From IMG/VR virus record IMGVR_UViG_3300025316_001101: a DNA stretch of 64,000 nucleotides; one strand, 5' to 3'. The notes under the pieces are model-generated. The model saw only the letters and a program-made list of their open reading frames with translations, did no database searches and was not told the DNA's origin. Each line of letters starts with the position of its first letter. Position 1 is the first letter of the stretch. The DNA comes from a virus (Duplodnaviria > Caudoviricetes). Of this stretch, positions 665 to 35,934 are shown one piece after another. The position numbers and the translations under genes are program-made.

Positions 665-749
665 CAGCCGGATGCTCTACCATTGAGCCACACTGGAATG
701 AATAAAAAAGCTCCAGCGGAAGGACTCGAACCTTCAACTGTCCGGTTAA
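665..749 (-). tRNA. Circularly permuted tRNA-Asn(GTT): 3' half (749-711) precedes 5' half (697-665)
   Basis: Halves complement each other: acceptor TCCAGTG/CGCTGGA+G73, anticodon stem TCCGG/CCGGA, loop CTG|TTAA; 13-nt spacer CTTTTTTATTCAT. Confidence 0.7.
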
Positions 750-750
750 G

Positions 751-20613: not shown

Positions 20614-20696
20614 CAAGGACGGAGAGAATCGAACTCTCATTTCGGCTTACGCCAAACGGTTTTGGAGACCGCTGCATTCCAGTCTGCCACGCCCTT
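20614..20696 (-). tRNA. tRNA-Trp(CCA) with long variable arm
   Basis: GCGGT-CTCCAAA-ACCGT; variable arm TTGGCGTAAGCCGAA. Confidence 0.8.
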
Positions 20697-20952: not shown

Positions 20953-21363
20953 TTAATACATTTTTTGGTTCGCAATCGTACAATGAAAGCATTTCCTAAA
21001 TCCTTCAGGCGGTAGCGTGAATTCACTTCTTACCGGCAAACCCAACTCAAGTCTGATATCTTCCAGTCGTACACAAAATATGTTCAACCAGTAGTAAACC
21101 TTTCCCTGTTGGACTATCGGACTATAAAAGAATTCAACTTCTTCGCCCTGATACTTCTTCCAATGTTCTTTGTGAACCGGCTCCTCTTTTTCTTGTCTTA
21201 CAACCGTAATATGTGGATCATATCGAGTGGGCATTACGGGCAACCATTTCGGAATCAATGCCCTATAATACTCTGCGATACCTTTATCCACCTCCACAAT
21301 TAATTTCCATCCTTCATCAGAATACCTTAGTTTTCCGATTGAAGGACATAACACTTCGTCCAT
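20953..21363 (-). CDS. 2H phosphoesterase family protein
   Basis: Two HxT motifs (PHITV, FHCTI); paralog of 39730-40152. Confidence 0.7.
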   Translation of the reverse strand: MDEVLCPSIGKLRYSDEGWKLIVEVDKGIAEYYRALIPKWLPVMPTRYDPHITVVRQEKEEPVHKEHWKKYQGEEVEFFYSPIVQQGKVYYWLNIFCVRLEDIRLELGLPVRSEFTLPPEGFRKCFHCTIANQKMY

Positions 21364-22790: not shown

Positions 22791-22873
22791 GTAGGACCGA
22801 AGGGAATCGAACCCTTATTGCCCTTTCGAGCCCAGATTAAAAGTCTGGAGCATTCCAGTCTGCCACGATCCCA
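22791..22873 (-). tRNA. tRNA-Lys(TTT) with long variable arm
   Basis: CCAGA-CTTTTAA-TCTGG; variable arm GCTCGAAAGGGC; D arm identical to Trp 20614-20696. Confidence 0.82.
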
Positions 22874-23504: not shown

Positions 23505-23577
23505 TGGCAGACCCAGGTTCCGACCCTGGAAGCCTCGGCTTATGAGACCGAGAAGGCGACCACGCCTACCATCTGCT
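23505..23577 (-). tRNA. tRNA-Met(CAT), initiator-like (1:72 mismatch)
   Basis: CTCGGT-CTCATAA-GCCGAG; A1/C72 mismatch. Confidence 0.75.
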
Positions 23578-23582
23578 ATAAG

Positions 23583-23675
23583 TGGTGGGGGCTGGGATCG
23601 AACCAGCGATCTTCAGGTTATTCTAGGGCTTGTCTGAGCCAAGAGCCTGACGAGATGCCTCTTCTCCACCCCACG
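23583..23675 (-). tRNA. tRNA-fMet(CAT) with 21-nt insertion in the anticodon (34/35)
   Basis: fMet-like body CGTGGGG/CCCCACC (C1-C72 mismatch), TCAGG/CCTGA; loop CTC[21 nt]ATAA. Confidence 0.7.
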
Positions 23676-23694
23676 TCATGTATTCTTATATATC

Positions 23695-23726
23695 TATTAT
23701 ACGCTGAAATTTTCGTTTGTCAAGTC
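23695..23726 (-). promoter_or_regulatory. sigma70-type promoter, identical 32-bp copy of 1923-1954
   Basis: TTGACA-16-TATAAT. Confidence 0.85.
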
Positions 23727-33790: not shown

Positions 33791-33870
33791 TCAAAATTAA
33801 AACCAGACAAGGGTTCGATAGTCGTCATTTTTCCGATGTAGACCATCTGGCATTCTGGTTTTAATTTTGA
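33791..33870 (-). ncRNA. Y-RNA-like unit G
   Basis: TCAAAATTAAAACCA-GAATGCCAGATGGTCTACATC...CCCTTGTC-TGGTTTTAATTTTGA. Confidence 0.7.
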
Positions 33871-33935
33871 GTCCGACAAGGGTTCGATAGTCGTCACGTT
33901 TTTGATAATGTAGACCATCTGGCATTCGGACTCAA
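33867..33935 (-). ncRNA. Y-RNA-like unit H
   Basis: TTGAGTCC-GAATGCCAGATGGTCTACAT...CCCTTGTC-GGACTCAA; core duplicated from unit G. Confidence 0.7.
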
Positions 33936-33936
33936 G

Positions 33937-34065
33937 AGTTGAAGATGGGATTTGCACCCATAACCTACTGGTTGGATGTAGTTCCAACTACATTTGGGTT
34001 TTAAGGCCCAACAAGGAACGCTGAAACGTTTTGCCGGTCGCTCTATCTAATTGAGCTACTTCAAC
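33937..34065 (-). ncRNA. YrlA-like tRNA-mimic Y RNA (unit I)
   Basis: Acceptor GTTGAAG/CTTCAAC, D arm, T arm ATGGG-TGCAAAT-CCCAT; insert CCTTGTTGGG..CCCAAATGTAGTTGGAACTACAT. Confidence 0.75.
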
Positions 34066-34224: not shown

Positions 34225-35934
34225 TTACTCGGCTGCCGATTCCTCGACAACTTCTTCTACAACCGGAGCCGCCGAAGCGTCGTCCAGGCTGACATTTTCA
34301 ATCACCTTGACCCAGTGATCCGCATCGTCGCCGCCTTCCATGAATCCGGCAATAACCTGGAACACTTGATCACTGAAGCCACCCACCTGGAGGATGTCCT
34401 GGTGCTGCTTCACTTGGCTGCTTCCCCTCGGGGTGAGGTCGATACAAACCAACTTTGCCCGTGGATTACGCTTCTTGAACGTCTGCCACTCGGTCATCAA
34501 GCCAGTTGCATTACCATAGGCATAACTGTAACCGCTGTCAACCCAACTTTCGTTGTCGCTGATGAAGACTACAAGGTCGCCCTTTGCCTTCTTTGCATTC
34601 AGTTCTGCCAATGGCAAGCTGCAATTCGTTCCACCACCACCATAACGAGCCAACTTTTGCGCATTCGTCATGATGCTGTCCCTCGAATTCAAGTCGTGCT
34701 TGTAGGTTCGAGTGTCGAACGGAATTACATTTGCCTGCTCGTTAGTACGCAACATGGTCACAGCGAACAGGGCCGCTACGTCCACGCACGAAACCGCCGA
34801 AGATGCACCCATTCGGTATCCCGTTGCCGGGCTACTCATTGAGCCTGAAGTATCGACGCAGACATACATTTCGCCGGAAATCTTCGGCACATTTTGTACC
34901 GCAATTTCCATTGCGTCCTGCAACGCCAAACTAATCTGAGTCGGTACGCCAGTCGCCGCCTTGAAAGCCATCAGCAGTTGGTACGGGAATACCCGTGCCC
35001 GCTCAATTTGCTTCTTGTCACGGAGACGTTCAGCAATAATCTGAACCAATTCCGGGTCACTCAATACGTCGTGTCGCTGGAAGGTGTTCAAATTCATTCT
35101 CGTCATCTGCCACGGGGCAGTACGAGCAATTTGCTTCCACTCGGCTGGGCCGATGCCCAACGAGTCCAACATACGGAAATCAACCCTCGGCACAGTGCCT
35201 TCCTTGGTCCGCTTGTAATTTTCGTAATCCTGCACCAACTGCGGAAGCAGGCTATAATCATGTTCGTAGCAAACGCCTTGAGCGTTTACATATACTTCGC
35301 CATTCTTAGCCAAAGTTACGAGCTTACCGTTGCGAACTTCCGCACCCTTGAGGTATGCGAACATCGCAGCCTTAGCTTCACTGGACGGACGTGGCCGTGC
35401 CATACGAAGAATGTCACGCATGGTCGGATCGTTACCGATAGACGCCTTGAACAAAGCTTCGCCGTTCATACGGTCGAACCAATCACGGATTGCGTGCTTG
35501 ATCGCCCACGAAGTCATATTGATCGGCTTACCGGTGATGGCACCACTACGGCCCATCTGAATAAAGTTTCGCAGCATCTTACCATTGTCGATTACTCGAC
35601 GGAAGACCTTACGGAACAACTTCGGATCGATCTGCGACAATACAACCGTCAAGAACGCTGGCATGTCCTTCATGTATGCCTTGTCACGGCAATAGACCGC
35701 AGTCTTCGCCAGGAACAACGGATCGTCAATCAATGCTTGCGCAGCATCCTTGGCAATCTTTAGATTGTCTTCGGCAGATACGTAGTAAGTGCCGTTGAAG
35801 CAGTTAGTCGCTGCAATTTGAGCCAGCGCATGCTTCGAGGAAAATGAATACGCCTTGCCACCAGCCGCATTAACGGTATCCGCTACCGGTGCAATCGGGG
35901 TACGCTGAGACGCAAAAAGGTTCTTGTTAGCCAT
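34225..35934 (-). CDS. rsr: Ro60 / TROVE-domain RNA-binding protein with VWA domain
   Basis: VNAAGGKAY, MKDMPAFL, MTRMNLNTF, ARVFPYQL, VCVDTSGSM, GGGTNCS, FISDNESW. Confidence 0.92.
   Translation of the reverse strand: MANKNLFASQRTPIAPVADTVNAAGGKAYSFSSKHALAQIAATNCFNGTYYVSAEDNLKIAKDAAQALIDDPLFLAKTAVYCRDKAYMKDMPAFLTVVLSQIDPKLFRKVFRRVIDNGKMLRNFIQMGRSGAITGKPINMTSWAIKHAIRDWFDRMNGEALFKASIGNDPTMRDILRMARPRPSSEAKAAMFAYLKGAEVRNGKLVTLAKNGEVYVNAQGVCYEHDYSLLPQLVQDYENYKRTKEGTVPRVDFRMLDSLGIGPAEWKQIARTAPWQMTRMNLNTFQRHDVLSDPELVQIIAERLRDKKQIERARVFPYQLLMAFKAATGVPTQISLALQDAMEIAVQNVPKISGEMYVCVDTSGSMSSPATGYRMGASSAVSCVDVAALFAVTMLRTNEQANVIPFDTRTYKHDLNSRDSIMTNAQKLARYGGGGTNCSLPLAELNAKKAKGDLVVFISDNESWVDSGYSYAYGNATGLMTEWQTFKKRNPRAKLVCIDLTPRGSSQVKQHQDILQVGGFSDQVFQVIAGFMEGGDDADHWVKVIENVSLDDASAAPVVEEVVEESAAE

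Follow-up and report, generated by a model that had tools for sequence, protein, structure and literature searches.

The anticodon loop of an initiator-type transfer RNA (tRNA) gene of a huge freshwater phage is split by a 21-nucleotide (nt) hairpin, which we consider likely to be a spliced intron of a new kind that is neither a ribozyme nor of the bulge-helix-bulge (BHB) type. The gene lies on the minus strand at positions 23675..23583 of a 64,000-nt stretch of viral DNA (Duplodnaviria; Caudoviricetes; IMG/VR record IMGVR_UViG_3300025316_001101), which we refer to as the window. According to the textbook view, tRNA introns of bacteria and phages are self-splicing group I introns, and protein-dependent tRNA splicing belongs to archaea and eukaryotes. 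The covarying inserts of 21-22 nt described here have the properties of neither group, yet they interrupt otherwise intact tRNAs including one of the initiator type, and if these tRNAs are used, a third splicing route must exist. The phages that carry them probably cut and rejoin tRNA by a route not yet described for bacteria or bacterial viruses.

In reverse orientation, the window corresponds to bases 99025-163024 of a virus record of 259,024 base pairs (bp), labeled G000 below, which CheckV estimates to be ~50% complete; wherever a gene is reported as not found in G000, this refers to these 259 kilobases (kb). G000 contains about 48-50 tRNA genes and a transfer-messenger RNA (tmRNA). It also encodes Ro60, whose gene is accompanied by Y RNAs, as well as an NAD-dependent DNA ligase for which a close cultured relative was not found. 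Close DNA relatives of G000 among GenBank phages were likewise not detected. Related phage fragments were retrieved via the DNA polymerase, and their tRNAs were then listed. Among the fragments that matter here, G002 has a DNA polymerase 48% identical to that of G000 and is syntenic with it over tens of kilobases, while the polymerase of G007 is 53% identical; the metagenomic contig L144 is related to the 224-230 kb region of G000, and G052 is syntenic with G000 at 20-63 kb. These viruses belong to a group of huge (or giant) freshwater phages, and the tmRNA, the NAD-dependent ligase, and the promoter described below point to a bacterial host of G000.

The interrupted tRNA gene and its identity

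The gene is 93 nt long and preceded by its own sigma-70-type promoter of the form TTGACA-16 nt-TATAAT (23696..23723, minus strand), which matches the consensus at 12/12 positions and lies ~20 nt upstream of tRNA position 1. Its 5' exon (23643..23675, minus strand) covers tRNA positions 1-34 and consists of the acceptor strand CGTGGGG beginning with C1, then UG, the D arm GAGA-AGAGGCA-TCTC, a single G, the anticodon stem strand TCAGG, and the loop bases C32, U33, and C34. The 3' exon (23583..23621, minus strand) covers positions 35-73, i.e., A35, U36, A37, and A38, followed by the stem strand CCTGA, the variable loop AGATC, the T arm GCTGG-TTCGATC-CCAGC, the acceptor strand CCCCACC with C72 at its end, and A73 as discriminator; a C74-T75 trailer follows (23581..23582, minus strand), and CCA is not encoded. 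Between C34 and A35 lies the insert (23622..23642, minus strand), so that the anticodon loop reads CTC[TTGGCTCAGACAAGCCCTAGA]ATAA. Within it, the first base (i1) pairs with i19, and the hairpin top (23627..23640, minus strand) has the arms GGCT and AGCC around a CAGACA hexaloop, whose second (A) and fifth (C) bases never vary among the seven members of the family described below; i20-i21 (GA) pair with the exon bases C34 and U33. RNAfold predicts the insert helix in the full 93-nt precursor and RNAalifold agrees. With the tRNA model of Rfam, the gene reaches 45.3 bits (gathering score 29), and the anticodon loop is where this model accommodates the additional bases; ARAGORN also detects the gene. 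An initial annotation of this DNA had reported the gene at these coordinates with its C1xC72 mismatch and a GGCT/AGCC hairpin in an insert at 23642..23622, and this is how the sequence reads.

The identity of the tRNA depends on which 21 nt are taken out. Excision after C34 gives the loop CTCATAA with the anticodon CAU, as the initial annotation had claimed, but that annotation overlooked that excision one or two bases further 3' gives CTCTTAA, i.e., a lysine tRNA with the anticodon CUU, which is what ARAGORN calls. The ambiguity disappears in the orthologs. That of G002, which is located in the matching place, has an A1xC72 mismatch, the D stem GAGA/TCTC, and the loop CTC-AT-GAGC-AAAACC-GCTC-CATGA-ATAA, from which every 21-nt excision that keeps U33 and a purine at position 37 yields CAU. 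That of G007 (A1xC72; A11:U24 in the D stem GAGC/GCTC; anticodon stem AGG/CCU) has an uninterrupted CTCATAA loop, and in a three-way alignment of the genes from G000, G002, and G007 the gap comprises exactly 21 columns between CTC and ATAA. Because the G002 ortholog allows CAU only and its G007 counterpart has CAU in an intact loop, we read the gene in the window as CAU and not as CUU, and the restoration of CAU by removal of the insert is borne out. A tRNA-Lys(CUU) with the insert at 35/36 or 36/37 would be in keeping with the alternative excision and with the discriminator A73, but the 1:72 mismatch and A11:U24 set the tRNA body apart from the lysine tRNAs of G000, and a 5' cut 6 nt before the hairpin loop, as in the unambiguous members of the family, is obtained in the CAU register only. 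With both the orthologs and the body features at odds with CUU, we rejected the lysine identity as highly improbable.

Judging from its sequence and those of its orthologs, the gene encodes a CAU tRNA of the initiator type. Position 1:72 is the C1xC72 mismatch instead of a Watson-Crick pair, the D stem GAGA/TCTC provides A11:U24, and the combination of CAU, a 1:72 mismatch, and A11:U24 is conserved in the orthologs, which agrees with the fMet-type body that had been proposed at the outset. It is the sole tRNA of the initiator type detected in the 259-kb record, and the remaining two CAU tRNAs of G000 resemble elongator or Ile2 types. Initiator function is nevertheless uncertain because the target has 2/3 of the G:C pairs expected at positions 29-31:39-41 (A29:U41, G30:C40, G31:C39), and the G002 ortholog keeps just G30:C40 of the three.

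The insert is maintained in G002, where the stem GGCT/AGCC has become GAGC/GCTC and the i1:i19 pair has changed from U:A to A:U in a compensatory manner, and it is absent from G007. A near-consensus promoter (TTTACA-16-TATAAT) lies at the equivalent place upstream of the G002 ortholog. By contrast, the two genes flanking the tRNA gene in the window have no relatives in IMG/VR and none in the syntenic region of G002.

Directly after the interrupted gene, the window contains a further tRNA-like gene of 73 nt (23505-23577, minus strand) that ARAGORN and Rfam both missed. Positions 1 and 72 of this gene are mismatched (A1xC72), its anticodon loop is CTCATAA (CAU), a 4-nt loop caps the D stem of 5 bp, and the T loop reads GTCGGAA. 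It has no counterpart downstream of the G002 ortholog.

A family of probable anticodon-loop mini-introns

The insert belongs to a family of seven anticodon-loop inserts of 21-22 nt in four related phage fragments (G000, G002, L144, and G052) that interrupt fMet, Met/Ile2, Gln, Leu, Arg, and Phe tRNAs. Besides the initiator-type gene, G000 carries 22-nt hairpin inserts in tRNA-Leu(UAA) and tRNA-Arg(UCU). The second member in G002 is assigned to Gln(UUG) because of its tRNA body (U1:A72, G73, and a Gln-type D arm) together with the cut rule of the family described below, that of L144 is a CAU tRNA of the Met/Ile2 type, and that of G052 is a tRNA-Phe(GAA) found with an intron-blind pattern based only on the spacing of D arm and T loop. 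The inserts measure 21 nt in four members, with Gln among them, and 22 nt in Leu, Arg, and Phe. Such inserts have consequences for annotation, as ARAGORN miscalls the target (Lys for Met), the Gln tRNA of G002 (as Lys), and the Met tRNA of L144 (as Glu), while the Leu member is missed by Rfam at the gathering score.

When anchored on the hairpin loop, the seven members align without internal gaps. They share an 8-pair helix with one bulged base after i1:i19, a stem of 4-5 bp, and a hexaloop of the form N-A-R-N-C-N, and the last two exon bases pair with the penultimate bases of the intron. In this consensus, 91% of cells are paired and compensatory changes occur at 8/8 pairs; the observed covariation score was reached in 0/500 shuffles, controls with slid partners lost the signal, and RNAalifold independently predicts the common helix.

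We used two covariance models to ask how specific this motif is. The first (R1) was trained on six family sites, and members score about 29-35 bits with it (32 bits for the target). Over 364 kb including the whole of G000, its matches were the six training sites only, all of them in tRNA anticodon loops, and in 49 other phage records (~5.7 Mb) it found no member, while the G052 member was recovered as a positive control at 29.2 bits. The second model (R2) was trained without either fMet gene, on the inserts of the five remaining tRNAs, and it ranks the target as the best non-training match (19.8 bits, E 3e-4) in 79 kb comprising the window and contig L131. Chance does not account for the insert. 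Pattern searches gave a similar picture. A D-arm/T-loop pattern search for orthologs returned nothing, and the pattern GGCTC...ATAACCYG produced 36 matches that were all ordinary tRNAs or partial tRNA 3' halves, with the insert in none of them. Patterns for Met-type introns detected the G002 ortholog only in IMG/VR, G002 and one new contig (L144) in JGI metagenomes, and in GTDB genomes a single false match, which was a class II tRNA-Ser. Within the scope of these searches, the only group in which the family appears to occur is that of these related huge freshwater phages.

A tRNA-Val(UAC)-like gene of G000 (209999-210094; L041:9999-10093; 56.8 bits with Rfam) also carries a 22-nt insert, in which 6 nt are followed by a hairpin (TCAGG-TGTATG-CTTGA) that abuts U33. 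This mirror-like design is not matched by R1, and we excluded the gene from the family.

In 7/7 members, a loop of 7 nt that has U33 and a purine at position 37 is regained once the insert is excised, and the resulting anticodon agrees with the identity features of the tRNA body in each of them. Intron-less orthologs are known for three of the interrupted tRNAs (fMet, Met, and Leu), and each time the alignment gap corresponds to the insert. The Met tRNA of L144 and the intron-less Met1 of G000 are separated by a 21-column gap between CTC and ATAA, like the fMet genes, and the Leu tRNA of G000, which has a class II body, differs from its intron-less counterpart in G052 by a 22-column gap at 83% identity. 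Because this Leu pair shows position 32 to be exonic, the Leu intron is placed at 32/33, as is the Phe intron; the introns of the Met tRNAs and Arg lie at 34/35, and that of Gln probably lies at 33/34.

These positions are incompatible with a fixed cut at 34/35, which we rejected. Instead, a 5' cut that precedes the hexaloop by 6 nt and adjoins the i1:i19 pair is possible in every member, and the 3' cut would come 2-3 nt beyond i19, to which i1 is paired; the two phosphates would therefore be opposed across the helix. A single ruler measured from the loop for both cuts was rejected as well, given that the 3' distance differs by one base between members. As read from the aligned genes, the predicted cut sites follow the hairpin and not the position in the anticodon loop.

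Possible routes of excision and ligation

We think it likely that the inserts are mini-introns spliced by proteins or a ribonucleoprotein (RNP) and sealed by an RNA ligase. The precursor would be transcribed from its own strong promoter, and the intron would fold into a hairpin of 6-7 bp with the conserved hexaloop and with its last two bases paired to U33 and C34. The intron cannot self-splice, and excision would be the work of proteins or an RNP, after which the tRNA halves would stay joined through the tRNA body until the two halves of the anticodon loop are sealed, most likely by the Rnl2-type enzyme of the phage. We infer the excision itself, the cutting enzymes, and the sealing ligase from the features of the family described above and from the gene content of G000. 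The latter comprises an Rnl2-family RNA ligase (G000 185966-186679; PF09414 at 89.6 bits; PHROG "RNA ligase") as well as two P-loop kinases with weak matches to polynucleotide kinases, candidates that would leave open a heal-and-seal route. In the tRNA cluster of the window, a 136-amino-acid open reading frame (20953-21363, minus strand) matches a 2H phosphoesterase domain faintly (E 0.004, below the cut-off) and clearly resembles a PHROG family whose function is unknown.

The observed geometry would fit two kinds of enzymes, tRNA end-maturation enzymes or an RNase III-type nuclease, both of which leave 3'-OH and 5'-P ends. Our preferred but tentative version builds on the former and regards the hairpin as a minimal mimic of an acceptor stem. 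RNase P, possibly with the phage's own RNase P RNA lacking the specificity domain (S domain), would make the 5' cut, and the 3' cut, two bases beyond the end of the helix, would be left to a tRNA 3'-trailer endonuclease; the resulting 3'-OH and 5'-P ends would be directly sealable by an ATP-dependent ligase, and the Rnl2-type enzyme might thus reseal the loop and, by the same pathway, also assemble a permuted tRNA-Asn encoded by this phage. That all these steps hold together is possible, though we would not bet on it. We lean toward tRNA end-maturation enzymes because an RNaseP-T-like RNA is present, because C74-U75 follows nearly all tRNAs of G000 and CCA is never encoded, and because the permuted tRNA-Asn requires exactly such cuts. 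The RNaseP-T-like RNA of 205 nt (G000 2728-2932; L039:2728-2932, plus strand) scores 37.1 bits (E 2e-5) over the full length of the model, though below the gathering score, and is located 2.3 kb from the intron-bearing tRNA-Leu; in Rfam, RNaseP-T is an RNase P without the S domain. In almost all of the ~48 tRNA genes of G000, C-T follows the discriminator, and none of them encodes CCA.

In the permuted tRNA-Asn (665..750, minus strand), the 5' half ends with G34 and the 3' half starts with U35. G34 is flush with position 1 of the next tRNA, while U35 comes right after A73-C74 of the previous tRNA, i.e., two bases past its acceptor helix. In this gene and in the target alike, the 5' piece stops immediately ahead of the base pair that opens a helix, and two bases separate the end of a helix from the start of the 3' piece. 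The permuted tRNA-Asn may therefore use the same end-making and ligation route as the intron. The initial annotation had likewise proposed one cleavage and ligation route for both RNAs, on the grounds of a shared break at 34/35. The break at G34|U35 in tRNA-Asn is confirmed and a common route is plausible, given the similar end geometry and the phage RNA ligase, but the 34/35 position does not define it, as the family also uses 32/33 and probably 33/34. The alternative offered in that annotation, mimicry of anticodon-nuclease products by these RNAs, finds no specific support.

Several points weigh against the mini-intron reading and especially against its acceptor-stem version. The family is small, with seven members in four related fragments. 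The predicted 3' cut follows the loop at a distance of 9 nt where the insert has 21 nt but of 10 nt where it has 22 nt, and Gln (21 nt) shares its helix with Leu, Arg, and Phe (22 nt) despite this difference. The ligase of G000 consists of the nucleotidyl-transferase domain only and has no solved relative by sequence. Neither RtcB, a splicing endonuclease, or RNase III nor Tpt1, an RNase Z-type fold, or a CCA-adding enzyme was found in G000. A hairpin of 6-7 bp is far below the size of known RNase Z substrates, and paired bases at -1 and -2 are not those that RNase P prefers.

The geometry of the cuts could also be produced by a double-strand nuclease of the RNase III kind, encoded by the host or by an unrecognized phage gene, which would make both cuts in one step and leave the joining to the phage ligase without involvement of the ordinary tRNA end-trimming enzymes. 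From the four 21-nt members, this would release a hairpin with a 2-nt 3' overhang (-1/-2 paired with i20/i21; i1 with i19), which is the geometry of RNase III products, and 5'-P and 3'-OH ends again suit an ATP-dependent ligase. However, the 22-nt members would leave an overhang of 3 nt (or 1 nt), the helix on the intron side comprises only ~8 bp while the usual substrates of bacterial RNase III are longer, and G000 yielded no gene for such an enzyme; we regard this route as unlikely, albeit worth keeping in mind. Still less probable in our view is that the insert is never removed and that the 93-nt RNA only resembles a tRNA, with an extended anticodon arm, and serves as a regulator or as a decoy that soaks up a host anticodon nuclease, methionyl-tRNA synthetase (MetRS), or formylase or that partners with the phage Ro60 protein. 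This phage does make other tRNA-like non-decoding RNAs, with a YrlA-type Y RNA adjoining its Ro60 gene, the target is immediately followed by the unusual tRNA-like gene with CAU, and no splicing endonuclease was found in the 259-kb record. Yet a decoy would have no need for flanks that in 7/7 cases rebuild a canonical 7-nt loop with U33, a purine at position 37, and an anticodon matched to the body; moreover, the insert-free orthologs are ordinary tRNAs, and the position of the hairpin in the loop varies among tRNAs.

Two further explanations have very little in their favor. A gene disabled by a small palindromic DNA element, with a hairpin devoid of RNA function, would be in line with the sporadic distribution of the inserts and with the presence of a given tRNA with and without insert in related phages. 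It is hard to reconcile with an insert that G000 and G002 retain with compensatory changes although the flanking genes have diverged beyond recognition, with consensus promoters that are retained, with insert copies that are each matched to their own exon bases, and with the absence of the motif outside anticodon loops in the 259-kb genome (R1), and we consider it very improbable. We give the slimmest chance of all to splicing of the archaeal type, i.e., cleavage of a relaxed BHB motif by a splicing endonuclease with RtcB as the ligase, even though archaea have short tRNA introns at non-canonical loop positions (PMC4090602). The splice sites lack a 4-bp central helix with flanking bulges (0-2/4 pairs in the target), no BHB register holds for all seven members, the consensus fold places the 5' site within a helix, G000 yielded neither an endonuclease nor an RtcB gene, and the promoter, tmRNA, and NAD-dependent ligase indicate a bacterial host. 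Since two 3-nt bulges around a 4-bp helix could be drawn neither at the target nor family-wide, we rejected the BHB reading, in agreement with the initial annotation, which had seen no clear BHB. It had also judged the insert too short for a group I intron, and we rejected this possibility as well: at 21 nt, the insert has no P3-P9 core and no Rfam intron match, its last base is A and not G, and the -1 base is a C paired with G in place of a U.G pair.

If the acceptor-stem version is true, this group of giant freshwater phages would splice tRNA in a manner not known from bacteria, and key tRNAs including the initiator would mature only while the RNA-processing genes of the phage are active. 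Splicing of the mini-introns may also be the reason why huge phages encode RNA ligases and carry permuted tRNAs alongside trimmed RNase P RNAs. The family offers a defined substrate for studying it, with a 93-nt precursor, a 28-nt motif, natural intron-less controls, and candidate enzymes in the same genome.

Known introns, tRNA repair systems, and other RNA genes

A search of the open literature found only the "enigmatic" tRNA introns of Lak megaphages and cases of group I introns as precedents. The former (Devoto et al. 2019, PMC6784885, Table S6) are, like the mini-introns, anticodon-loop inserts in tRNA genes of huge phages for which no splicing route is known and for which orthologs exist with and without insert. 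One example from that table, however, measures ~93 nt and includes a minihelix that resembles a tRNA and has a T-loop sequence, unlike the bare 21-nt hexaloop hairpin of the target, which has no T-loop, and the mini-introns occur in an unrelated group of freshwater phages. Group I tRNA introns, exemplified by the bacterial and plastid tRNA-Leu(UAA) split as CUU/.../AAAA (Williams 2020 preprint, doi 10.1101/2020.01.27.920355), resemble the mini-introns in their bacterial or phage setting, their site in the anticodon loop (often after position 34), the pairing of the last exon bases with the intron, the pyrimidine at -1, and their sporadic occurrence among orthologs. They differ in that the mini-introns are 21-22 nt long, have Watson-Crick pairs at -1 and mostly A as the last base, and show neither a catalytic core nor a match in Rfam. 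In G004, a tRNA-Leu(UAA) gene (L136 7367-7638, minus strand) contains a 197-nt insert after the anticodon that is probably a group I intron, so that across these relatives tRNA-Leu(UAA) is found with a 197-nt insert (G004), with a 22-nt hairpin (G000), and with none (G052).

With BHB introns (reviewed in PMC4090602), the mini-introns share their short length, the presence of a hairpin, a position set by local RNA structure instead of the tRNA body, and, as we propose, removal by proteins and joining of the exons by a ligase. They lack the BHB motif, have their 5' site within a helix, and occur in a bacterial setting in a genome in whose 259 kb no splicing endonuclease or RtcB was found. The repair system of phage T4, in which PrrC cuts tRNA-Lys at 33/34 before Pnkp heals and Rnl1 seals the break (reviewed in PMC3400036), is comparable in that a phage RNA ligase joins tRNA halves in the anticodon loop, and G000 has a ligase and possible polynucleotide kinases. 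However, T4 mends damaged host tRNA without excision and does so with Rnl1, whereas the ligase of G000 belongs to the Rnl2 family. Permuted tRNA genes, such as those of Cyanidioschyzon merolae and the tRNA-Asn of the window, are similar in that pieces are joined within the anticodon loop, and this tRNA-Asn even has the same 34/35 junction and end geometry as the target, but the latter is in normal order with a small insert. In Cyanidioschyzon merolae, permuted tRNAs are processed via BHB motifs and circular intermediates.

A census of class I tRNAs with 19-24 extra bases between the D arm and T arm in IMG/VR gave more than 118 matches, most of which were canonical 37/38 introns in Tyr or Ile tRNAs, many of them on contigs labeled as giant viruses. 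In phage tRNAs, we also observed hairpin inserts of 19-23 nt with other designs in Arg-UCU (L189, L268), Lys-UUU (L176), and Asn-GUU (at 32/33; L247, L267). In Arg-UCU, the insert lies at ~37/38, and its tail pairs with the loop's 5' half.

Just downstream of the Ro60/TROVE gene (34225-35934), an apparent tRNA of 129 nt with a 61-nt insert (33937-34065, minus strand) is accompanied by two repeats (33800-33932, minus strand). We rejected the sequence at 34065..33937 as an intron-bearing tRNA since it looks like a YrlA-type Y RNA next to Ro60. Two tRNAs of the window, tRNA-Lys(UUU) (22792-22872, minus strand) and tRNA-Trp(CCA) (20614-20696, minus strand), have hairpin variable arms of 12-14 nt, which is unusual for class I; the Lys(UUU) genes (84-85 nt) and the Trp gene (83 nt) of G002 match them in size. 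Finally, G000 encodes two tRNAs with a CUA anticodon (183724-183798 and 210663-210736), i.e., amber suppressors, and their presence hints at a recoding of TAG in part of this genome.

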